A stretch of 64,000 nucleotides of DNA from Actinomycetota bacterium. GTDB lineage: Bacteria; Actinomycetota; Acidimicrobiia; Spongiisociales; UBA4744. Location of the stretch: contig JAADGS010000018.1 of the NCBI GenBank assembly GCA_013152275.1, positions 11,896-75,895 on the forward strand, in the 5' to 3' direction. A program made the translations under genes and the position numbers. Shown here piece after piece: positions 1,693 to 64,000 of the stretch (its first letter is position 1; every line of letters starts with the position of its first letter). Under the pieces are notes generated by a model that made no database searches, had not been told where the DNA came from, and was given only the letters and a program-made list of their open reading frames with translations.

Positions 1693-2856
1693 ATGAGTAA
1701 CTACACCCCCCGCCCCGAGCACAAGTTCACTTTCGGCCTGTGGACCGTGGGTAATACCGGCCGGGATCCGTTCGGCGAGGCAACCAGGCCCCCACTCGAT
1801 CCGGTCGACTCCGTTCACCGCCTGGCAGACCTGGGCGCGTACGGGGTGAGCCTCCACGACAACGACCTCGTTCCTTTCGGTGCTACGCCTGCGGAGCGAG
1901 AGTCCGCCGTCAAACGATTCCGGAAGGCGCTCGACGAGACCGGCATGAAAGTGACGATGTCGACGACGAACCTCTTCGGCCATCCGGCCTTCAAGGACGG
2001 CGCCTTCACCTCCAACGATCGGGGGGTTCGACGGTTCGCGATCGCCAAGACCATGCGGGCCATCGACCTTGGCGCGGAGCTCGGTGCCGGGATCCACGTG
2101 TTCTGGGGTGGCCGCGAAGGCTCGGAGTCGATGGCGGCCAAGCCTGCCGACACGGCACTCGACCGCTACCGGGAGGCCATGAACTTCCTCGCCGACTATG
2201 TGATCGACAACGGCTACCCGACTCGCTTTGCGCTCGAACCGAAGCCCAACGAGCCGCGCGGTGACATGTTCCTGCCGACTGTCGGGCACGCGCTCGCCTT
2301 CATCGAGACGCTCGACCATCCCGAGATGGTCGGCGTCAACCCGGAAGTGGCCCACGAGACGATGTCCGGTCTGAGCTTCTACCACGCGGTCGCGCAGGCG
2401 ATCTGGTCGGGCAAGCTGTTCCACATCGACCTCAACGCGCAGAAGATCGGTCGATTCGATCAGGACCTCCGCTTTGGTTCCGAAGGCATCAAGGACACGT
2501 TCTTCGTCGTCAAGCTTCTCGAAGAATCGGGCTACGGCGGTCCGAAGCACTTCGACGCACACGCGTATCGTGTGGAGGACGGCGACGGAGTCTGGGAGTT
2601 CGCCGCCGGCTGTATGAGGACGTACCTGATGCTCGCCGAGAAGGCCGGTCGCTTCGCCGAAGACCCGGAGATTCAGGCTGCGCTCGCAGCCGCGAGCGTG
2701 CCCGAGCTTGCCGAGGAGACGGCCGGCGGATACTCTCGGACATCTGCCGACGCACTGCTCGCCGAGACGTTCGACCCTGATGCACTGGCTCGGCGCGGGT
2801 ACCACAACGAGCGGCTCGACCAACTCGTCATGGAACTCATCATGGGCATCCGCTGA
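1693..2856 (+). CDS. xylA: xylose isomerase (class I, actinobacterial type)
   Basis: 387 aa. Hallmark N-terminus [15 protein letters not shown], the [11 protein letters not shown] metal-binding region, and HIDLN. GAAGGAAG SD upstream. Confidence 0.95.
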
Positions 2857-3040
2857 GGGCTGTCTTCCCTGGAGGACTAGGATCACCGAGTCGAATTCTG
2901 GCCGCATCTACGCATGAGCCAGGCGCAAGGGAACCAGGGTTCCAAACGGGCGGGTTCTACGACCCGCCGTAAACGGACGGGTCTCGTAACACGTCGAAAC
3001 AGGCGGGTTCGTGATACGTCAAAACAGGAAGGAAACAAGT

Positions 3041-4207
3041 ATGGGACCATTTAGAGGAAAACGATGGATTCTCATCGTCGCGGTTCTCGCAATGGTTGCC
3101 GCTGCGTGCAGCAGCGGTTCAAGCGGAACGACGGCGACCACCACGGCGGCCACCACGGCGGCCACGACGGCCACGACGACGGCCACGACGGCGGCCACGG
3201 TCGAAGAAGGCAGCATTTGGGTGCTGCTCCCTGATAGCGCGTCCTCCTCCCGTTGGGAGACGGACGATCGCCGCTACTTCAAGGCAGCGTTCGAAGACGC
3301 AGGTGTCAAGTACAAGATCGTCAACGCACAGGGCGACCCGTCCCAGCAGCAGCAGCAGGCCGAGCAGGCCATCGCTGCCGGAGCGAAGGTGATCCTGCTG
3401 GTGAATCTCGACTCGGGATCCGGTGCGGCGATTATCGCCGAAGCTCGTGCAGCCGGCGTGTCGATGATCGACTACGACCGGCTGACCATCGAAGGTCCGG
3501 GCGCCGATGTGTACGTCAGCTTCGACAATGTCAAGGTCGGCGCGACGATGGCGGAGATTCTCGAACCTGCCATCGATGCTCTCGGTCTGGCGAAGCCGCG
3601 CATTGTCATGCTCAACGGTGCACCGACCGACAACAACGCGACGCTGTTCCGTCAGGGCTACTACGAGACGGCCGTGAAACCGCGTGTCGCCGCCGGCGAC
3701 TGGGTGCTCGTTGCCGATCAGGCAGTGCCGAACTGGGACAACCAGGAAGCGTTGACGATCTTCGAGCAGATCCTCGTGGCGGCCAATAACGGGGTCGACG
3801 CGGTCTTTGCCGCCAACGACGGTCTGGCCAACTCGGTGATCACGGCCCTCAAGTCCGCTGGGATCGGCCCGATGCCGGTCAGTGGGCAGGATGCCACGGC
3901 CGCCGGGCTGCAGAACATCCTCTCCGGATGGCAGACGATGACGGTGTACAAGCCGATCAAAGCCGAGGCCAATGCCGCCGCAGGCGCGGCCATTGCGCTG
4001 CTGAAAGGCGAGCCGCTGGACGGCGTCAAGGGCGATTTCACTCTGACGACGATCAACAACGGGACGAACGATCTTCCGTTCATGGCGCTGACGCCGGTTG
4101 GCGTCACCAAGGACAACATCAAGGAGACGGTCATCGCAGACGGCTTCCGTACCTGGGACGAGATCTGCGTCGGTGAGTTCGAGCAGTACTGCCCGGCAGA
4201 CCGCTAG
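3041..4207 (+). CDS. xylF: sugar (xylose-type) ABC transporter substrate-binding lipoprotein, PBP1 family
   Basis: Signal peptide plus lipobox (VAAACSSG) and a Thr/Ala-rich linker. Periplasmic sugar-binding fold. GGAAGG SD. Sits upstream of the ABC ATPase and permease genes. Confidence 0.8.
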   Translation: MGPFRGKRWILIVAVLAMVAAACSSGSSGTTATTTAATTAATTATTTATTAATVEEGSIWVLLPDSASSSRWETDDRRYFKAAFEDAGVKYKIVNAQGDPSQQQQQAEQAIAAGAKVILLVNLDSGSGAAIIAEARAAGVSMIDYDRLTIEGPGADVYVSFDNVKVGATMAEILEPAIDALGLAKPRIVMLNGAPTDNNATLFRQGYYETAVKPRVAAGDWVLVADQAVPNWDNQEALTIFEQILVAANNGVDAVFAANDGLANSVITALKSAGIGPMPVSGQDATAAGLQNILSGWQTMTVYKPIKAEANAAAGAAIALLKGEPLDGVKGDFTLTTINNGTNDLPFMALTPVGVTKDNIKETVIADGFRTWDEICVGEFEQYCPADR

Positions 4208-4230
4208 ACGAATCGACGAGACACGATGAT

Positions 4231-4275
4231 GAGGCCTCGGCGGTGCGCGTACTACGCTCCCCGCCGAGGCCTTGT
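4231..4275 (+). terminator. Hairpin between xylF and ATPase gene (AGGCCTCGGCGG-N18-CCGCCGAGGCCT), attenuator/terminator candidate
   Basis: Perfect 12-bp GC-rich inverted repeat directly after the xylF stop, followed by TTGTCGCG. Confidence 0.5.
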
Positions 4276-4298
4276 CGCGATAGGAGTTACCCGAGATC

Positions 4299-5066
4299 AT
4301 GACTGATTCGCCCATCTTGGAGTGCAGGGGAGTCTCCAAGCATTACGGTGCCGTCCAGGCCCTGTACAAAGTCGATTTCGAGGTCCGAGCCGGTGAGGTC
4401 ATGGCGCTCGTGGGCGACAACGGCGCCGGAAAGTCGACCCTGATCAAGGGCATCGCCGGGATCTTCCCCTTCGACGAGGGCGAGGTTCGCTTCGAAGGTG
4501 AGAAGGTCGACATCACAGGTCCGCGGGACGCGGCAGCTCTCGGAATCGAAGTGGTGTATCAGGATCTCGCTCTGGCCGACAACCTCGACGTCGTCGCCAA
4601 CATGTTCCTGGGTAGAGAGCGGGTGCAGAAAGGGCTCATACTCGACGAGGCGAGCATGGAGCGTTCCGCAGAGGAGACGCTCGCCAGTCTCTCGGTCACG
4701 TCTCTCCGCCGGGTCCGTCAGGTGGTTGCCGGGTTGTCCGGTGGTCAGCGACAGTCGGTGGCGGTCGCGAAGGCGGTGATGTGGAACAGCAAGGCCGTGA
4801 TCCTCGACGAGCCAACGGCAGCGCTCGGGGTCGCGCAGACCCGACAGGTCCTCGACCTGGTGCGCAGGCTCGCCGATCGTGGCCTGGGTGTTGTGCTGAT
4901 TTCGCACAACCTTCTCGATGTGTTCGAGGCTGCCGATCGGATCACCGTGCTTCGTCTCGGCCAGCAGGTCGGCGTATACGAACGATCCGAAACGACGCAG
5001 GAAGAGATCGTCTTTGCCATCACTGCCGGATCCGTGAATCAGGTGGCCGAGGAGCAGGTCTCATGA
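4299..5066 (+). CDS. xylG: sugar ABC transporter ATP-binding protein (single NBD)
   Basis: Walker A GDNGAGKST, ABC signature LSGGQRQ, Walker B ILDEPTAAL. Confidence 0.9.
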   Translation: MTDSPILECRGVSKHYGAVQALYKVDFEVRAGEVMALVGDNGAGKSTLIKGIAGIFPFDEGEVRFEGEKVDITGPRDAAALGIEVVYQDLALADNLDVVANMFLGRERVQKGLILDEASMERSAEETLASLSVTSLRRVRQVVAGLSGGQRQSVAVAKAVMWNSKAVILDEPTAALGVAQTRQVLDLVRRLADRGLGVVLISHNLLDVFEAADRITVLRLGQQVGVYERSETTQEEIVFAITAGSVNQVAEEQVS

Positions 5067-6316
5067 GCGCCGGCGAGCCCGCAGACCGGGTCACCTCCAA
5101 TACGGGCACGGGGATGGTGCAAACAACCTTCACCGAATATGCGGCGTCGTGGTGGTCGAACGTGCGCAGTGGCGAGTTGGGATCCCTGCCGATCATCGTG
5201 GGGCTCGGCGTCATCGTCGGCATCTTCGGGAGTCTCGACAGTACGTTCTTCGCCGCGCGGAACTTCACCAACCTTCTCCTTCAGATGGCCGGGCTCGCGG
5301 TGATCGCCATCGGCGCGGTCTTCATCCTGCTCCTCGCCGAGATCGACCTCGCGGTCGCCTACGTGAGCGCCGTCGGCGGTGTCGTGATGACGATGCTGCT
5401 CCGACCCGGCGATCCGGGCTGGCCCTGGTGGCTCGCCATCGGTGTGGCGCTCGCCGCCACGACGCTCATCGGCATGATTCATGCGCTGATCGTGACGAAG
5501 GCCGGCGTGCCGTCGTTCGTCGTGACGCTGGCCGGGTATCTGACCTGGTCCGGTGTCGTCCTCATACTGACCACCACGTACTCCACGGCGGGTACGATTC
5601 TCATCCAGGAGCCGGTTGCCGTCGGCATTGCCGGCAACTTCCTCAGCCATCTTTGGGGATGGATCCTGGCGGGAGTCGCGATTGTCGGGTATCTGTACCT
5701 CGAACTGTCCAAGGCGAGGACGCGCAGTCGTCGTGGTCTTCTTCGGAAACCGATGGCGATGATCGCCCTGCAAGTCGCCGTGGTCGCGGTCGGCAGTCTT
5801 GGTGCCGTGTACTACGCAAACCAGGACCGCGGCGTGCCGATGGCGACGCTCATCCTGTTGATTGCTCTGGTGTTCTGGACGTTCGTCACGAACCGCACCC
5901 GTTTCGGACGTCACATCTACGCCGTTGGAGGCAACCCGGAGGCGGCTCGACGGGCCGGCATCAACGTCGACAGAGTTCGGATTGCGGTCTTCATGATCGG
6001 TGGACTCATGGCCGGTGTAGGTGGCATCATCCTCGCATCCCGACTTCGCTCCGTGGCCACGAATACGGGCGGTGGGAGCCTGCTGCTCAACGTGATTGCC
6101 GCAGCCGTCATCGGCGGCACGAGCCTGTTCGGTGGGAAAGGCCGGGTCGTGGACGCCCTTCTGGGCGCGGCGGTGATCGTGTCGGTGAACAACGGCATGA
6201 ACATGCTCGGGTTTGCTGCCGGAACGAAGTTCGTGATCACCGGCCTCGTTCTGCTCGCGGCCGTGCTCGTGGACGCACTGTCCAAGAAGGGTCGTGCTTC
6301 TCGCGGTATGGCGTGA
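5063..6316 (+). CDS. xylH: sugar ABC transporter permease
   Basis: ATGA start/stop overlap with the ATPase gene. Multi-TM protein with the branched-chain/sugar permease motif (VGGNPEAARRAGINV). The ORF-track N-extension to 4781 overlaps the ATPase gene and is rejected. Confidence 0.85.
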   Translation: MSAGEPADRVTSNTGTGMVQTTFTEYAASWWSNVRSGELGSLPIIVGLGVIVGIFGSLDSTFFAARNFTNLLLQMAGLAVIAIGAVFILLLAEIDLAVAYVSAVGGVVMTMLLRPGDPGWPWWLAIGVALAATTLIGMIHALIVTKAGVPSFVVTLAGYLTWSGVVLILTTTYSTAGTILIQEPVAVGIAGNFLSHLWGWILAGVAIVGYLYLELSKARTRSRRGLLRKPMAMIALQVAVVAVGSLGAVYYANQDRGVPMATLILLIALVFWTFVTNRTRFGRHIYAVGGNPEAARRAGINVDRVRIAVFMIGGLMAGVGGIILASRLRSVATNTGGGSLLLNVIAAAVIGGTSLFGGKGRVVDALLGAAVIVSVNNGMNMLGFAAGTKFVITGLVLLAAVLVDALSKKGRASRGMA

Positions 6317-45711: not shown

Positions 45712-47226
45712 ATGACCGACGAACACGAAACACCGCTTTCCGACGAGGACCCCCTTGCCGCGGACCCACTGACCGCACGGCGCCTCGCCAAGGTGGAGGC
45801 GTTGAGGGCGCTCGGCGAGGAGCCCTATCCACAGCGTTTCGAGAGGACCGCCACGGCGGCCGATCTCGCCGGGGAGTACGGGGATCTCGATCCCGGATCG
45901 TCGACGGGGGCGATCGTGTCGGTCGCGGGTCGGATCGTCAACATCCGGCGGCTTGGCAAGCTGAGCTTCTGCGTCTTGCAGGACGTCAGCGGGCAGATCC
46001 AGCTCTTCGTGGACAGGCGCACGATGGGAGATGACCGTTTCGAGCGGTTCGGCGAGGACATCGATACCGGCGACTGGGTCGGGGCGACCGGCGAAGTCAT
46101 CACGACCCGACGAGGCGAACTGAGCGTGCGCACCGGCGAGATCCGTCTGCTCTCCAAGGCGTTACGGCCGCTGCCGGAGAAGTGGCACGGGTTGCAGGAC
46201 AAGGAGCGCAGATTCCGCCGCCGCTACCTCGATCTGCTCGCCAACGAGCAGGCCAGGCGTGTCGCCAAGGTGCGGATCGACACGGTCGCGGCGCTCCGGG
46301 ACTCCTTCGTCCGGCGGGGGTTCGTCGAGGTTGAAACACCGATGCTGCAATCCGAGGCCGGCGGCGCGCTCGCTCGGCCGTTCGTCACCCACCACAACGC
46401 GCTCGATATCGACATGTACCTGCGCATCGCCACGGAGCTGCACCTCAAGCGCCTCGTCATCGGAGGGATGGAGAGAGTCTTCGAACTGGGCAGGGTCTTT
46501 CGCAACGAGGGAATCGACGCGACACACAATCCCGAGTTCACGACGCTGGAGGCATACCAGGCGTTCGCCGACTATCACGACGTGATGGACCTGATGGAGG
46601 GTGTCCTCGGTGCGGTCGCCGAGGCCGCCACGGGGGGAGCGGTCATCGAGTATCAGGGCAGGACGCTCGATTTCACGCCGCCCTATCGTCGGGTCCGCCT
46701 TCTCGATCTGGTGGCCGAGGCGACCGGCGTGGAGATCTCCTTCGACCGCACACGTGAGGAGTTGGCCGATGTGTGCCGGCAACACGGCATCTCGGTGCAT
46801 CCGGTCTGGGGCAAGGGCAAACTGATCGTCGAACTGTACGAGCGGCTGGTGGAGCCGAACTTGTGGGAGCCGACATTCGTGATCGACTTTCCGAAGGAGA
46901 CCTCTCCGCTCGCCAGGGAGCATCGTGATGATCCGAACCTGACGGAACGGTTCGAGCTGTTCGCCGGTGGGATGGAGTTGTGCAACGCATTCAGCGAGCT
47001 GATCGACCCCGTCGACCAGCGGGCGCGCTTCGAGGCCCAGGCTCGGGCCAAGGCCGAAGGCGAGGAGGAGACCCACCCGGTGGATGAGGACTTCCTCAGG
47101 GCGCTCGAATACGGGATGCCACCCACCGGCGGGCTCGGGATCGGTGTGGATCGGCTCGTGATGTTGCTGGCCGGCGAATCAACGATTCGTGAAGTGGTCC
47201 TCTTCCCGACGATGCGCCCCGAATAA
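45712..47226 (+). CDS. lysS: lysine--tRNA ligase (class II)
   Basis: OB anticodon-binding domain, class II motifs (FRNEG..., GGLGIGVDRLVM). Confidence 0.95.
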   Translation: MTDEHETPLSDEDPLAADPLTARRLAKVEALRALGEEPYPQRFERTATAADLAGEYGDLDPGSSTGAIVSVAGRIVNIRRLGKLSFCVLQDVSGQIQLFVDRRTMGDDRFERFGEDIDTGDWVGATGEVITTRRGELSVRTGEIRLLSKALRPLPEKWHGLQDKERRFRRRYLDLLANEQARRVAKVRIDTVAALRDSFVRRGFVEVETPMLQSEAGGALARPFVTHHNALDIDMYLRIATELHLKRLVIGGMERVFELGRVFRNEGIDATHNPEFTTLEAYQAFADYHDVMDLMEGVLGAVAEAATGGAVIEYQGRTLDFTPPYRRVRLLDLVAEATGVEISFDRTREELADVCRQHGISVHPVWGKGKLIVELYERLVEPNLWEPTFVIDFPKETSPLAREHRDDPNLTERFELFAGGMELCNAFSELIDPVDQRARFEAQARAKAEGEEETHPVDEDFLRALEYGMPPTGGLGIGVDRLVMLLAGESTIREVVLFPTMRPE

Positions 47227-48508: not shown

Positions 48509-49708
48509 TCAAGCCCCGTATCTGCGAGGATCGGTCAGCTCGCCGTCGACGGCGAGCGTGCGTTCGAACCCATCGATGCCCGACAGCGTGCCTGTGACGA
48601 TCACCGCGTCCCCGGGTTGGAAGCGCGCTGCCGCGGCCGACGCCACGATCACCTTGACGGTCAGTGGCCCGAACAGATCGGTGTCGATGGACCCGACGTC
48701 GACCGTCACACCTGATTCCGACCGCCCGGCCACGGTGCCGTTCCAGCGGATCTGCCGTCCGGCGTACCGTTCTTCGAATATCGCCGCCATCTGAAAGCTG
48801 AGCAGATGACCTCCGAAGAGCACATCGGCGACATCGAGCGGTTTGGGTCCGACCGGCGGGGTGTCGGGTGTGGGCTCGGGGACGGTGTCGCTTGGTTCGG
48901 CCGGTGGGGAGATCGTCACGAACTCGCCCGTCTCCGAGTCGAGTATCTCTTCGGAAGTGACCACTTCGGCCGGTGGGGAGATCGTCACGAACTCGCCCGT
49001 CTCCGAATCGAGTATCTCCTCGGAAGAGACCACTTCGGCCGGCGGCTCCTCGGCAAGAAGCTCCAGCCCGTCCCACGGCTGGAACAGGTCCGGTGCCGGC
49101 GGAGTCGAGTCGTCGTAGCTGGAGCCGACTCTGTTCGTTGGCATGTGCTCGCGTTGTGCGAGGACCGTTCCCGTGGCGAGGAGAAGGCGCGCGGTCTTCA
49201 CGATCCTGTCGAGCTTGCGTTCGAAGATCCTGCGCTCGAACACGATGGTGTCATCGGTGATCTTCGCCGCCGGGAGTGTGACCAGGAGTTCGCGCACCGC
49301 CTGGCGCATCGGAGGGGTAAACACGGTCGCCAGTCGCTCCGGGTCGCTGGTCTTGACCGTGAACACCTCGTCGAACGCCTCGTCTCCCGTCTCTGCGTCC
49401 TGGGCTCCCAGGAACTCCGAGACCTTCGAGAGCCCGGTCTTGCGGGTCACCTGCAGGCCTACGCCGAGCGACGGGTACCGAACGCGATACCTCGTCGATT
49501 TCGTGTTGCCGGATGAGCGCACCTCGATCGTGAGGCCAAGTCCTTCGACCTCACCTTCGATCCTCGGAGGGGCCATGGCACTCTTCTTCTGATAGGCGAC
49601 GCCGAGCAGGCGAGCCGCCCCTCGCCACGTCGCGGTGACCTGCCTGTTCGAGACCAGAGACAGGATGCCGATGCCGATTGCGATGGCGATGATGAGAGGG
49701 AAGTCCAT
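48509..49708 (-). CDS. hypothetical membrane-anchored protein with 23-aa tandem duplication
   Basis: N-terminal TM helix. Internal repeat SPPAEVV[ST]SEEILDSETGEFVTI x2, encoded by two 69-bp DNA copies with 3 mismatches. No recognised domain. Confidence 0.6.
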   Translation of the reverse strand: MDFPLIIAIAIGIGILSLVSNRQVTATWRGAARLLGVAYQKKSAMAPPRIEGEVEGLGLTIEVRSSGNTKSTRYRVRYPSLGVGLQVTRKTGLSKVSEFLGAQDAETGDEAFDEVFTVKTSDPERLATVFTPPMRQAVRELLVTLPAAKITDDTIVFERRIFERKLDRIVKTARLLLATGTVLAQREHMPTNRVGSSYDDSTPPAPDLFQPWDGLELLAEEPPAEVVSSEEILDSETGEFVTISPPAEVVTSEEILDSETGEFVTISPPAEPSDTVPEPTPDTPPVGPKPLDVADVLFGGHLLSFQMAAIFEERYAGRQIRWNGTVAGRSESGVTVDVGSIDTDLFGPLTVKVIVASAAAARFQPGDAVIVTGTLSGIDGFERTLAVDGELTDPRRYGA

Positions 49709-50809: not shown

Positions 50810-51037
50810 GGTAGCGATCGCTGGGAAGGGGACCGACGCCGGGCATTGCACGACACGATCGAACCGTTCGCTTCCAGAATACGGCTCAGTTGGAATGGCT
50901 ATCGTGTCGATGAGCCCTATAGCGGGTGCAGGTGCGTGTGACGAGGTACCCTGCGGTCGAGTTAGAAAGGGCCATCGCTATACTCTGAAGTTGCCTCCCC
51001 CATCTGTTTGGGGGTAAGGAATAGGAGGCACAAGGCC

Positions 51038-53530
<2,493 letters not shown>

Positions 53531-60197: not shown

Positions 60198-61478
60198 ATG
60201 AAGTATCTCTGTTCGTCGTGTGGACATCGATCCGCGAAGTGGATGGGGTTCTGTCCTCAGTGTGGTTCGAGAGAGGCGCTGGTCGAGGATCGAGCTACAC
60301 GGCGCGCTGCGCCACCGGAAGTCGTCCCGGTCGCGTCCGCGGCAGCCTCGGCAGGTGATCGCTCTCCGGTCGGCATCGGTGAGATCGACCGGGTGCTCGG
60401 AGGTGGGATCGTCCCCGGGGCGGTGCTGCTCCTCGGTGGCGAACCCGGCGTCGGCAAATCCACCCTTCTTCTGCAGGCTGCAGGATCGTTCGCCGGGACA
60501 GGGCGCAGCGTGCTCATCGCGACCGCGGAGGAGTCTTCACATCAGGTCGGGCTGCGGGCCAAGCGCCTGGGCGTGGATTCTCCACGGGTGTCACTCGTTG
60601 CCGATTCCGACATCGATGCCATCCTTGCCGCGGCCGACGCGATGCGGCCGGATCTGCTCATCGTCGACTCCATCCAGACGGTCTCCGCTCCCGGAGTCGG
60701 ATCCGTGCCCGGTTCGGTCTCCCAGGTCAGAGAGTGTGCGGCCAGAGTCATCCAACATGCGAAGGAGCATGCCACCGCTGCGGTGCTCGTCGGGCACATA
60801 ACCAAGGACGGAGGCATTGCAGGTCCCAAGACGCTGGAGCACATGGTCGACGTCGTCTTGTACCTCGAGGGTGAGAGCAACATGGGGTTGCGCGCTCTGC
60901 GGGGGCTGAAGAACCGGTTCGGACCGACCCATCGACTCGGCCTGTTCGAGATGCGGAGCGAGGGTCTCGCGGAGGTCGAGGACCCATCTGCGGCGTTTCT
61001 CTCCGACTGGAGGGGCTCCTCGGCGGGGACGGTCGTGTTTCCGACGGTCGAGGGGAGACGCCCGGTTCTCGTCGAAGTTCAGGCCCTCGTGTCGCCGAGT
61101 TCGGTGCCGCAGCCCCGACGCAGTGTCCGTGGCCTCCAACCGGCACGCGTCCATCAGCTTCTCGCCGTCATGGAGCGCCACGCGGGCCTCGGCTTCTCGG
61201 CGCACGAGGTGTACGTCAACGTCGTTGGCGGGATTCGGGTCTCCGAGCCGGGGGCCGACCTTCCGGTCGCGCTCGCGCTTGCATCTTCCCTGCTCGATCG
61301 GCCGCTGGGATCGCTCGCGTCGTGGGGTGAGATCGGCCTGACCGGCGAGGTCCGTCCGGTCGCCCACGAGCGAAGGCGCCGGGAAGAGTCGGCCCGTCTG
61401 GGTATCGAACGAGTCGTCGGCCCGAGGAGCGGTGCCCCTTCCAGTCTGCGCGACGCGTTGGAGAAGGCGTTCGGCTGA
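60198..61478 (+). CDS. radA: DNA repair protein RadA/Sms
   Basis: N-terminal zinc finger CSSCGH...CPQCG, RecA-like Walker A GEPGVGKST, KNRFG motif, and a Lon-like C-terminus. Confidence 0.95.
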   Translation: MKYLCSSCGHRSAKWMGFCPQCGSREALVEDRATRRAAPPEVVPVASAAASAGDRSPVGIGEIDRVLGGGIVPGAVLLLGGEPGVGKSTLLLQAAGSFAGTGRSVLIATAEESSHQVGLRAKRLGVDSPRVSLVADSDIDAILAAADAMRPDLLIVDSIQTVSAPGVGSVPGSVSQVRECAARVIQHAKEHATAAVLVGHITKDGGIAGPKTLEHMVDVVLYLEGESNMGLRALRGLKNRFGPTHRLGLFEMRSEGLAEVEDPSAAFLSDWRGSSAGTVVFPTVEGRRPVLVEVQALVSPSSVPQPRRSVRGLQPARVHQLLAVMERHAGLGFSAHEVYVNVVGGIRVSEPGADLPVALALASSLLDRPLGSLASWGEIGLTGEVRPVAHERRRREESARLGIERVVGPRSGAPSSLRDALEKAFG

Positions 61479-61794: not shown

Positions 61795-62856
61795 ATGACC
61801 TCCGACCTCTTCCTGCAGACCGTTCAGCGGCTCGCTCCGGGGACTCCGATCCGGATAGCGTTTGGACGTATCATCCAGGAGGAGAACGGTGCCCTCGTCG
61901 TCCTTGGCGACGGACCCGAGGTTCAAGCGATCTGCTCCGGGGGTTTCGATCTTTCCGGCACCGAGTTCTCGTCTGCCAGGCTTGCCGAACTGGCGAAGAT
62001 GGATGGTGCGATCATCATCGACGATTCGTGGAGCAAGATTCTGCGGGCCAACGTGCACCTGTTGCCGGATCCGTCGATCGCGACCGTCGAGACCGGTGCC
62101 CGTCATCGGACTGCCGAACGGGTGGCCGTTCAGACGGGTAAGCCGGTCGTTGCCGTGAGTGAGGATCGACGCGTGGCGACCCTGTTCCTCCATGACATGC
62201 GTCAGGAGCTGCAGGATCCGACGGATCTCATGGCGTCGGTGAACCAGTCTCTTTCCACCCTCGAGCGTGTTCGCAGGCGCCTCGATGAGGCGGAGGAGCG
62301 GCTCACCCCGTTGGAAGTCTCCGACCTGGTCACGTATCGGCGGGTTGTCGTGCTCGTGCAGCGAGCCGAACTCGTCCGCAGGATCGGCGATTCGATCAAA
62401 GAGGATCTCATCGGGCTGGGCGGGGCCGGCGATCTTGCACGCCTGCAGCTGACCGATCTCATGCAGGGAGTCGTCGAGCTCAGGGATCTCGTCGTTCGAG
62501 ATTACGTGCGGCCGTTGCGAGTGGGCACGGTCGAACGCAGGCTCAAACGGCTCGAGGCCGTTCCCACCGCGGAGCTACATGAGCCGGATGCCGTGGCAGA
62601 GGCTCTCGGCTTCGAACATCTCGACGAGCGTGCAGAGCCCTTGGGTATTCGCGTGCTCAATCAGGTTCCCCGCTTGCCGGACAACATTCGCGACGGTGTT
62701 GCCAAGCATTTCCGGAGTCTTCAGAAGATGATGAGTGCCTCGGCGGCCGAGCTGGATTCTGTCACGGGGATCGGCAAGGCGAGAGCGCAGGAGCTGCGCA
62801 GAGTGTTCGACCGATTGCAGGAATCCGTTCATTCGTGGGACCACGAACCGCTCTGA
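61795..62856 (+). CDS. disA: DNA integrity scanning protein DisA (diadenylate cyclase)
   Basis: DAC domain (DGAIIID, RHRTAERV), linker, and a C-terminal HhH. Confidence 0.9.
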   Translation: MTSDLFLQTVQRLAPGTPIRIAFGRIIQEENGALVVLGDGPEVQAICSGGFDLSGTEFSSARLAELAKMDGAIIIDDSWSKILRANVHLLPDPSIATVETGARHRTAERVAVQTGKPVVAVSEDRRVATLFLHDMRQELQDPTDLMASVNQSLSTLERVRRRLDEAEERLTPLEVSDLVTYRRVVVLVQRAELVRRIGDSIKEDLIGLGGAGDLARLQLTDLMQGVVELRDLVVRDYVRPLRVGTVERRLKRLEAVPTAELHEPDAVAEALGFEHLDERAEPLGIRVLNQVPRLPDNIRDGVAKHFRSLQKMMSASAAELDSVTGIGKARAQELRRVFDRLQESVHSWDHEPL

Positions 62857-62970
62857 CGCGTCCGCCAGGCAACGCACACGGCAGTAGCCGGTTTCGGGCC
62901 TTCCGCGGCCGACCTTCAGCAAGAGCCACCACGCTCGTCCCGCGGTCTCGACGCCTGGCGGGTCGTGACA

Positions 62971-63098
62971 CGCAGTACGAAGCACGAGAAACGTACGGAT
63001 GCGGCGGGCCTCCGGCTTCTGGCGAAAGCCGCTACGCTCGCCCCGGCGTCTCATGGCGACTGCCGCTGCGCAACGAAGTACGAAATGCAAAGCACGGG
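62971..63098. repeat. CGCTCGCC-core + CGAAG heptad element, upstream of carD
   Basis: CGCAGTACGAAGCACGAGAAACGTACGG ... GCCGCTACGCTCGCCCCGGCG ... CAACGAAGTACGAAATGCAAAGCACGGG. Confidence 0.75.
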
Positions 63099-63148
63099 TG
63101 AGTGCAGCGAGACCACCGAGTAGAATCCCCCTCCCAACCTGAGGATCT

Positions 63149-63961
63149 ATGGCTACACCGAAGAAACCTGCCGCGAAGAAAACGGCTGCCAAGCCGGCGG
63201 CGAAGAAGCCTGCGGCGAAGAAGCCTGCGGCCAAGACCGGCACGAAGACGGCGGCGAAGAAGCCCGCGGCCAAGAAACCTGCGGCCAAGGCTCCTGCGAA
63301 GACGGCGAAACCCGCAGCAAAGAAAGCGGTTGCGAAGACGGCGGCGAAGAAACCTGCGGCCAAGGCTCCTGCGAAGACGGCGGCGAAGAAGCCTGCCGCG
63401 AAGAAGACAACCGCCAAGACGGCGGCGAAGAAGCCCGCGGCCAAGAAACCGTCGATCTTCAGCGTCGGTGACAAGGTCGTGCATCCACAACACGGTGCCG
63501 CGATCATCGTCAAGAAAGTGCGGCAGACGGTTGCCGGCTCCCGCCAGGAGTACTTCGTGCTCGAGATCGCGACGGAGCAACTCACCGTCTTCGCCCCGGT
63601 CGACACGATCGAGGAAACGATTCGCCCGGTGATCTCCAAGAATCAGGCACGCAAGGTTCTTGCGGTCTTCAAAGATCCTCCGCAGGAGGCAGGGAGCAAC
63701 TGGAGCCGGTGGTACAAGATACTGAATGAGAAGATGACCAGCGGGGACATCTACCAGGTCGCCGAGGTCGTGAGGGATCTCACCTACGCGCAGCAGATCA
63801 AGGGAATCTCCCCGGCTCTCAAGAGGATGCTCTCCCGTGCACGACTGACGTTGACATCCGAGTTGCAGTTTGCGCTGAACGTGGGTGAGGAAGAAGCGAC
63901 CAAACGCCTCGACCGGGCTCTGCCCACCGTGGAGGAGCCGGACGCCGGCGGTACGACGTGA
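63149..63961 (+). CDS. carD: CarD/CdnL-family RNAP-binding transcription regulator with N-terminal Lys/Ala/Pro-rich histone-H1-like repeat extension
   Basis: Residues 1-~95 are AAKKPAAKK repeats, encoded by 18-bp DNA tandem repeats at 63166-63440. They are followed by [16 protein letters not shown]...[25 protein letters not shown], which matches the CarD RID and C-terminal domains. Confidence 0.8.
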
Positions 63962-64000
63962 TCGTCGAGATCGTGCGCCTGCTCATCACGCTGGCGCTGA

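Follow-up and report, generated by a model that had tools for sequence, protein, structure and literature searches.

Why should a regulator of transcription initiation carry a hundred-residue polycation at its N terminus, and is that polycation made at all? The question is raised by a 64,000-nucleotide stretch of an Actinomycetota genome (hereafter the window; assembly GCA_013152275.1, contig JAADGS010000018.1, positions 11,896–75,895, class Acidimicrobiia). In it, an open reading frame (ORF) at 63149–63961 on the forward strand encodes a 270-residue protein that joins a CarD/CdnL module to a lysine-rich extension. We consider it probable that this ORF is the housekeeping carD gene translated from the ATG at 63149, and that its product combines the RNA polymerase (RNAP)-binding module with a polycationic tail that adds nonspecific DNA binding. 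The parts of the gene on which the argument turns are as follows, all in window coordinates.

63121–63126, forward strand: TAGAAT, a −10-like hexamer of a putative carD promoter, 22 nt 5' of the ATG, proposed from comparative conservation only
63141–63145, forward strand: GAGGA, Shine–Dalgarno-like, 3 nt 5' of the ATG; GAGG is kept in the related loci L001–L004
63149–63151, forward strand: ATG, the proposed carD start codon, two codons past an in-frame TGA at 63140; opens the conserved N-terminal motif M-A-T-(P/K)-K-K
63149–63451, forward strand: coding region of the 101-residue K/A/P/T tail, with imperfect 15/12-nt repeats forming 22 K-terminated units
63455–63457, forward strand: ATC (Ile103), the start in the 168-residue NCBI annotation NOY54658.1
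63458–63634, forward strand: CarD RID (Tudor-like, RNAP β1-lobe interacting), residues 104–162; Pfam PF02559 CarD_TRCF_RID, 53.9 bits against a cutoff of 23
63653–63913, forward strand: CarD C-terminal helical domain CarD_C, residues 169–255; Pfam PF21095, 88.8 bits against a cutoff of 23.1
63701–63703, forward strand: wedge tryptophan W185, within CarD_C
63959–63961, forward strand: carD stop codon TGA, overlapped by the GTG of the next gene (63958)

Judged by every defining feature that can be read from a sequence, the protein belongs to the CarD/CdnL family. Residues 102–260 hold a complete module, RID plus CarD_C, and residues 2–159 of Mycobacterium tuberculosis CarD align to residues 102–259 with an E value of ~1e-31 (phmmer against the PDB). 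With both Pfam domains above cutoff, the original prediction of a complete CarD module in this ORF is borne out, although the module begins at residues 102–104 by Pfam and phmmer and not at ~97 as first placed. AlphaFold2, given an alignment of 31 homologs, models residues 101–260 with a predicted local distance difference test score (pLDDT) above 90, as a β-rich RID of five strands (residues 109–150) plus a C-terminal domain that is helical (helices at 185–257). W85 of M. tuberculosis CarD corresponds to W185 here, which is invariant in the same alignment and sits in a conserved NWSRxYK segment. The module has a net charge of +1, and only about ten residues follow CarD_C. From homology, the protein should bind the RNAP β1-lobe and stabilise the open complex.

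The likeness to mycobacterial and Thermus CarD (PDB 4KBM, 6EDT and 4XLR) covers the RID and helical C-terminal domain, the wedge tryptophan, the basic NWSR-YK segment and the neighbourhood, with disA 5' and ispD/ispF and cysS 3'. Two features set the window protein apart. First, those CarD proteins are 160–170 residues long and begin at the RID (mycobacterial CarD has 162 residues and, as had been stated, no tail), whereas the window protein has 101 additional N-terminal residues. Second, arginines R25 and R47 of M. tuberculosis CarD, which we take to be RNAP β-lobe contact residues, are replaced here by Gln126 (63524–63526) and Phe148 (63590–63592). These substitutions hint at a re-wired interface between RID and β1-lobe. 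An 'LTVF(V/A)P' motif is found throughout the Acidimicrobiia homologs.

Residues 1–101 consist of 39 alanines, 34 lysines, 14 prolines, 11 threonines and one each of methionine, glycine and valine. They contain neither aspartate nor glutamate, which gives a net charge of +34 and an isoelectric point of 11.5. AlphaFold2 scores residues 1–100 at a pLDDT of ~50–59 and assigns no secondary structure, and the tail is predicted to be intrinsically disordered. No other K/A/P-rich tract occurs in the six frames of the window, and the tail is therefore not a general trait of this genome stretch.

The underlying DNA is a degenerate tandem repeat. Self-identity of the tract peaks at a lag of 15 nt (0.63), followed by 42, 27 and 12, and Tandem Repeats Finder reports degenerate periods of 15, 39, 42 and 54 with 66–82% matches. 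The original prediction had recognised this tract but described it as an 18-bp array at 63166–63440 with about 15 tandem repeats. The period is instead 15 nt, with some units of 12 (self-identity at lag 18 is 0.36), the limits are ~63159–63451, and the protein is built from 22 short [P/T]AAKK-type units, each ending in K or KK. Likewise, of its "~95-residue histone H1-like tail", the K/A/P richness stands and the length becomes 101 residues, while models of Hc2/H1 proteins match only below their cutoffs.

The tail shares a K/A/P-rich, repetitive composition and weak profile matches with chlamydial Hc2 and Burkholderia-type H1-like proteins. Its scores nevertheless fall far below the curated cutoffs: 21.8 bits for PF07382 (cutoff 40), 19.2 for NF038053 (80) and 19.1 for NF038052 (135). 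We therefore reject membership in these families and regard the resemblance as compositional, not homologous. The tail fits the PAKKA-type class, which is itself defined by composition and is not a homologous family: it is terminal, acid-free, made of short P/A/K units and of varying length among homologs. The same P/A/K pentapeptides, terminal placement and fast length evolution are known from HU/Hlp of mycobacteria and Streptomyces, from Deinococcus HU (where the tail is N-terminal) and from M. smegmatis Ku (PMC3553676). Those tails, too, sit on nucleic-acid-associated proteins, but their carriers are nucleoid and repair proteins, whereas here the carrier is an RNAP-bound transcription initiation factor.

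Myxobacterial CarD also fuses a CarD-type RNAP-binding module to a basic disordered region. There, however, the tail is C-terminal (HMGA-like in Myxococcus xanthus, histone H1-like in Anaeromyxobacter) and follows an acidic segment, with AT-hooks (RGRP) in M. xanthus. The myxobacterial protein works with CarG at extracytoplasmic function (ECF) sigma promoters, as a non-essential paralog beside CdnL. The window protein has an N-terminal tail, no acidic segment and no RGRP AT-hooks, and belongs to a housekeeping locus of the Actinomycetota. We accordingly rejected membership in the myxobacterial CarD subfamily, given the opposite terminus, the missing acidic segment and AT-hooks, and the other phylum. 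All 80 related loci that we recovered with a CarD module come from metagenome-assembled genomes of Acidimicrobiia/Actinomycetota, some of which carry other labels. The tail of the window protein is an acquisition independent of that of myxobacterial CarD.

Basic tails across CarD proteins

The N-terminal K/A/P tail is common and fast-changing in Acidimicrobiia, and not a one-off. A search of 5.8 billion clustered proteins, biased toward tailed proteins by its tailed query, brought up N-tailed CarDs in over 100 separate clusters at 90% identity, with tails of 39–189 residues and mostly from Acidimicrobiia metagenome-assembled genomes. The original view that an N-terminal tail is unusual thus holds only relative to the studied model proteins: public databases contain these >100 non-redundant N-tailed CarDs. 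In 78 orthologous loci, the extension ranges from 6 to 174 residues; it measures 6–10 residues (e.g. MAKKSK) in 45 of them and at least 40 in 13.

N-tailed CarD can be seen in databases, under inconsistent annotations, and has apparently not been described. Some members have been auto-named "histone H1-like repetitive region-containing protein", and we found no paper on an N-tailed, lysine-rich CarD/CdnL in the literature searched. CdnL has been described as a standalone protein of 160–200 residues (PMC4374960). The window protein, at 270 residues and with a 101-residue basic tail, falls outside this size and outside the absence of an added DNA-binding domain, a delimitation that is descriptive and not mechanistic. 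One table gives a length range of 137–301 residues in Actinobacteria without comment (PMC2919716). A CarD survey restricted its matches to 120–200 residues (PMC4593161), and surveys so limited would miss N-tailed CarDs; trypsin-based proteomics is blind to such tails, that of the window protein being digested by trypsin into fragments of at most 5 residues.

Across 104 tails, the median length is 106 residues and the composition 27% K, 31% A and 12% P, with a net charge of +29. Aspartate and glutamate together have a median of 1.7%, versus 14% in the CarD module. The repeat units differ by clade: PAAKK in the window, a 21-residue STAAKKPAPKKSTAKKPAATK-type unit in L001, KSESKPAAAKSSRPA in L026 and a 20-residue unit in L032. 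Because the K-rich, acid-poor composition holds despite these clade-specific units, it supports selection on the charge of the tail.

Judged from the CarD module, tails expanded independently about five to six times: parsimony on a neighbour-joining tree of the module gives ~6 state changes for long tails (≥40 residues). In the same tree, the window's clade is wholly long-tailed (the window itself, L001–L004 and L007–L009). Length also changes between near-identical genes. The 91-residue tail of L032 equals the 32-residue tail of its near-identical neighbour L035 plus three copies of the 20-residue unit. Five proteins (P0009, P0010, P0018, P0019 and P0020) have CarD modules that are 100% identical and tails that differ by units of 5 or 10 residues, and the tails of P0025 and P0031 differ by 13 residues. 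The length polymorphism anticipated in the original prediction is therefore real among close relatives.

Basic tails also occur far from the window's clade. In an exhaustive search of 1.84 billion proteins (50%-identity representatives), true N-terminal K/A/P tails were found on CarD/CdnL proteins 31–40% identical to the query (P0218, P0255, P0254, P0262, P0265 and P0238). C-terminal K/A/P tails were found on actinomycete-type CarDs of another lineage, ~40–50% identical to the window's (P0143, P0140, P0168, P0170, P0180, P0227 and P0245). Such distant N- and C-tailed proteins argue that basic tails were added to the CarD/CdnL family repeatedly. Many other "N-extended" CarDs among the representatives had ordinary composition and over-called starts, and were left uncounted.

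In double-CarD proteins, tails reach 471 residues. At the disA–carD–ispD locus L081 (ENA ERZ23496040, scaffold_975), one forward-strand ORF at 2588–5119 encodes 843 residues: a 471-residue K/A/P/S/T tail, a CarD module, a 45-residue AKKP linker and a second CarD module. Automated gene calling had shortened this ORF to 372 residues (P0001) and placed two antisense "genes" across the tail. The cluster of P0122 (639–641 residues, 10 members, two of them on ~2.76 Mb contigs) has the same double-CarD architecture. We know of no description of tandem, fused CarD.

Proposed role of the tail

Studies treat CarD/CdnL as a factor brought to promoters solely by RNAP, its own DNA contact being very small: 380 Å2, with the RID near the upstream part of the bubble (PMC4593161). 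A polycationic tail could change this. In the mechanism we propose, the RID would bind the RNAP β1-lobe, as homology suggests, and W185 with its adjacent basic segment would be placed at the upstream double-strand/single-strand junction (−14 to −10), stabilising the open complex; the role of this wedge tryptophan (W85 in M. tuberculosis, W86 in Thermus) has been described (PMC4593161). Attached to the RID, the tail would lie beside the upstream duplex and could bind it electrostatically, in a sequence-nonspecific and salt-dependent manner. CarD would thereby become locally more concentrated on the nucleoid and stay longer at promoters, in a mode that we liken to the HMGA/H1-like C-terminal domain of myxobacterial CarD and the PAKKA tails of HU and Ku. 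Slippage or recombination between the 12–15-nt and longer repeat units would let the tail grow and shrink.

Several precedents make this plausible. In M. xanthus CarD, the HMGA-like disordered domain gives DNA binding and probably nucleoid localisation, and other basic disordered domains can take the place of this basic region (PMC4374960). PAKKA repeats modulate the DNA binding of Ku and HU, including through the N-terminal tail of Deinococcus HU, and lysine-rich tails have been argued to have evolved repeatedly (PMC3553676).

Four considerations weigh on the other side. DNA binding by the tail is argued from analogy. Ku of M. smegmatis bound DNA with higher affinity once its PAKKA tail was removed (PMC3553676), so more lysine does not guarantee tighter binding. 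The 45 of 78 orthologs with an extension of 6–10 residues function with it, which makes a long tail dispensable for CarD in this class. Finally, Q126 and F148 in place of the two RNAP-contact arginines are a caveat on the mechanism as a whole.

A first alternative, which we regard as unlikely, is that the tail is translated but has no specific function, being a tolerated by-product of slippage seeded by a short basic N terminus (MAKKSK). Fast evolution is a known property of low-complexity regions (PMC3553676), and within the 6–174-residue range of orthologs most extensions are at most 10 residues. The expansions are recent and repeated, yet an entire clade has kept long tails while its CarD modules diverged to ~75–80% identity. 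Clade-specific repeat units suggest drift, but every lysine codon is a single transition from glutamate, and acidic residues remain rare over the 104 diverged tails. Distant CarD/CdnL proteins have also arrived at the same solution, at one terminus or the other, and a +34 polycation on a promoter-bound protein cannot be electrostatically inert.

A bolder extension of the DNA-binding proposal, which we put forward as doubtful, is that Acidimicrobiia CarD is a nucleoid-bound architectural RNAP tether, keeping CarD and thereby RNAP concentrated on DNA. The tail might in addition drive condensates, or partly replace lysine-tailed nucleoid proteins or the Lsr2 that is absent at the locus. The 843-residue protein with its 471-residue tail fits such a tether: through its two RNAP-binding modules, it could bridge a pair of polymerases. 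If the reading were true, tail length would act as a quickly adjustable "dial" for open-complex stability at promoters globally.

We likewise think it improbable that the tail is functional chiefly in something other than tethering to DNA, such as binding RNA or polyphosphate, forming condensates with RNAP and nucleic acids, or governing CarD stability through protease access. Polylysine-like disordered regions do bind any polyanion, and tails of 471 residues in double-CarD proteins far exceed the reach needed to promoter DNA; all precedents of K/A/P tails on CarD, HU and Ku in the literature read nevertheless concern DNA.

Whichever of these roles applies, Acidimicrobiia present a housekeeping CarD with a disordered tail of ~+30 whose length differs between near-identical strains. 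This offers an experiment of nature on what nonspecific affinity for DNA does to the stabilisation of open complexes, and is a convergent parallel to the C-terminal HMGA/H1-like domain of myxobacterial CarD.

The start of translation

All of this presupposes that the tail is made, and it is almost certainly translated from the ATG at 63149. This ATG is the sole ATG, GTG or TTG in frame between the TGA at 63140 and a GTG at 63479. The N-terminal extension opens MA(T/K/Q)KK-like in 78 of 78 orthologous loci, whatever its length, and ATG, GTG or TTG at the domain boundary is almost absent from them. Among 104 non-redundant long tails, the first five residues are M in 104, A in 87, T in 83, K in 75 and K in 81. 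Moreover, the 45-residue AKKP tract of L081 joins two CarD modules within one ORF, as do such tracts in P0001, P0002 and P0122, and they are therefore certainly coding there. Third-position G+C content (GC3) of the CarD frame is 0.76, the highest of the forward frames (the others being 0.55 and 0.65).

The sequence upstream of the start is conserved as well. A TAnnnT box lies 9–12 nt 5' of the ATG in most of the 78 Acidimicrobiia orthologs (variants gGTACACT, TACAAT and TAGACT), and it does so next to short and long extensions alike. In its own clade, the window shares with its closest orthologs (L001–L004) a cTAGAATc 22 nt 5' of the ATG, with a GAGG Shine–Dalgarno sequence in between. A conserved box and start beside extensions of either length argue for a promoter and start unit that has been kept while the tail expanded inside the coding region.

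In most Acidimicrobiia carD genes (L009–L080), the 9–12-nt spacing implies that the leader is very short or missing. There, the stop codon of disA often lies inside a −35-like GGATTGA, ~17–18 nt further 5' of the TAnnnT box. The window's clade differs from these loci in having a 22-nt leader with GAGG.

Some observations pull against the proposed start. A strict two-hexamer sigma-70 scan of 62800–63500 found no promoter, so that the evidence for the putative one is the conservation of the TAnnnT box. The spacing from Shine–Dalgarno sequence to ATG is short (3 nt), and the NCBI pipeline chose the internal ATC for this very gene. One antisense frame shares the GC3 of 0.76, which leaves room for an antisense shadow ORF. 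Because that frame uses the same third positions, we dropped GC3 as an argument against a 354-residue antisense ORF. This ORF gave no match in Pfam, nor did two others that overlap, and all three mirror the codons for K, A and P; minus-strand "terminator-like" matches inside the tail are by-products of the repeats.

It is very improbable, in our judgement, that the repeat tract is instead an untranslated 5' leader preceding an ordinary, tail-less CarD that starts at ATC 63455 or GTG 63479. Annotations have used both kinds of start, ATC in NOY54658.1 on the same contig and GTG in the close homolog P0058. ATC, however, very rarely serves as an initiator and is not preceded here by a Shine–Dalgarno-like sequence, and a start at GTG 63479 would delete RID strand β1, which aligns with M. 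tuberculosis residues 2–10. Open frames arise easily at 65% GC, and two other forward and two antisense frames are open across the tract; yet in more than 100 independent tails of variable length it is always the K/A/P frame that runs on into CarD. The −10 box and MATKK start stand directly 5' of the tail, positioned as in short-extension orthologs. Acidic residues are depleted in the tails, and the single ORFs with an AKKP tract between two CarD modules likewise speak against a leader. An Rfam scan of 62500–64000 detected no RNA family at E ≤ 1, and so offers no known leader or riboswitch as an explanation.

The divergent annotations expose a problem of their own. On the same 144.7-kb contig, the identical gene is called as 168 residues by NCBI (NOY54658.1, identical to P0013 and beginning MFSVGD) and as 270 residues by JGI/IMG, and the two calls share one 90% cluster. 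Relatives have been trimmed in the same way and flanked by spurious antisense ORFs; P0058 and P0053 have similarly truncated starts. The start-calling problem is systematic for K/A/P-tailed genes.

The chance that assembly produced the tract by collapsing or duplicating a repeat, which would make the tail or its length unreal, is negligible: short-read metagenome assemblers can mis-size tandem repeats and the tract contains long imperfect ones, but its units are degenerate (60–82% identity) and hence reliably assembled, the same architecture appears in more than 100 independent assemblies, Mb-scale contigs included, and the reading frame is intact.

The carD neighbourhood

Judged by gene order, the window gene is the housekeeping carD/cdnL at a conserved radA–disA–carD–(PIN/TRAM)–ispF–cysS locus. 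Its neighbours in the window include the following.

45712–47226: lysS
51008–53530: clpC
60198–61478: radA
61795–62856, forward strand: disA, the 5' neighbour of carD, with Pfam domains DAC, DisA-linker and HHH

An aminotransferase gene, an ORF of no assigned function and a polyprenyl synthase gene lie between lysS and clpC, and clpC is followed by an ABC transporter, radA, disA and carD. The spacer between disA and carD measures 292 bp in the window's clade. This neighbourhood matches the M. tuberculosis arrangement, which we take to be radA–disA/carD–ispD–ispF–cysS, and therefore marks a housekeeping carD locus.

The original prediction that the lysS–clpC locus has no lsr2 also holds: Pfam detected no Lsr2 between these genes or elsewhere in the 64-kb window, and the best tblastn match in the window had an E value of 3.3, with an approximate M. 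tuberculosis Lsr2 sequence as query. The mycobacterial lsr2 position is occupied by an ORF, a putative gene, on the reverse strand (48509–49708). At 398 residues it is far larger than Lsr2, to which it bears no likeness, and it has no significant Pfam match.

At the 3' end of carD, the GTGA overlap with the next gene suggests translational coupling. In the close relative L001, the gene that overlaps the end of carD (3528–4571) encodes a 347-residue membrane protein with PIN and TRAM domains. It is followed there by ispF and cysS, with no ispD between carD and ispF, unlike L081.

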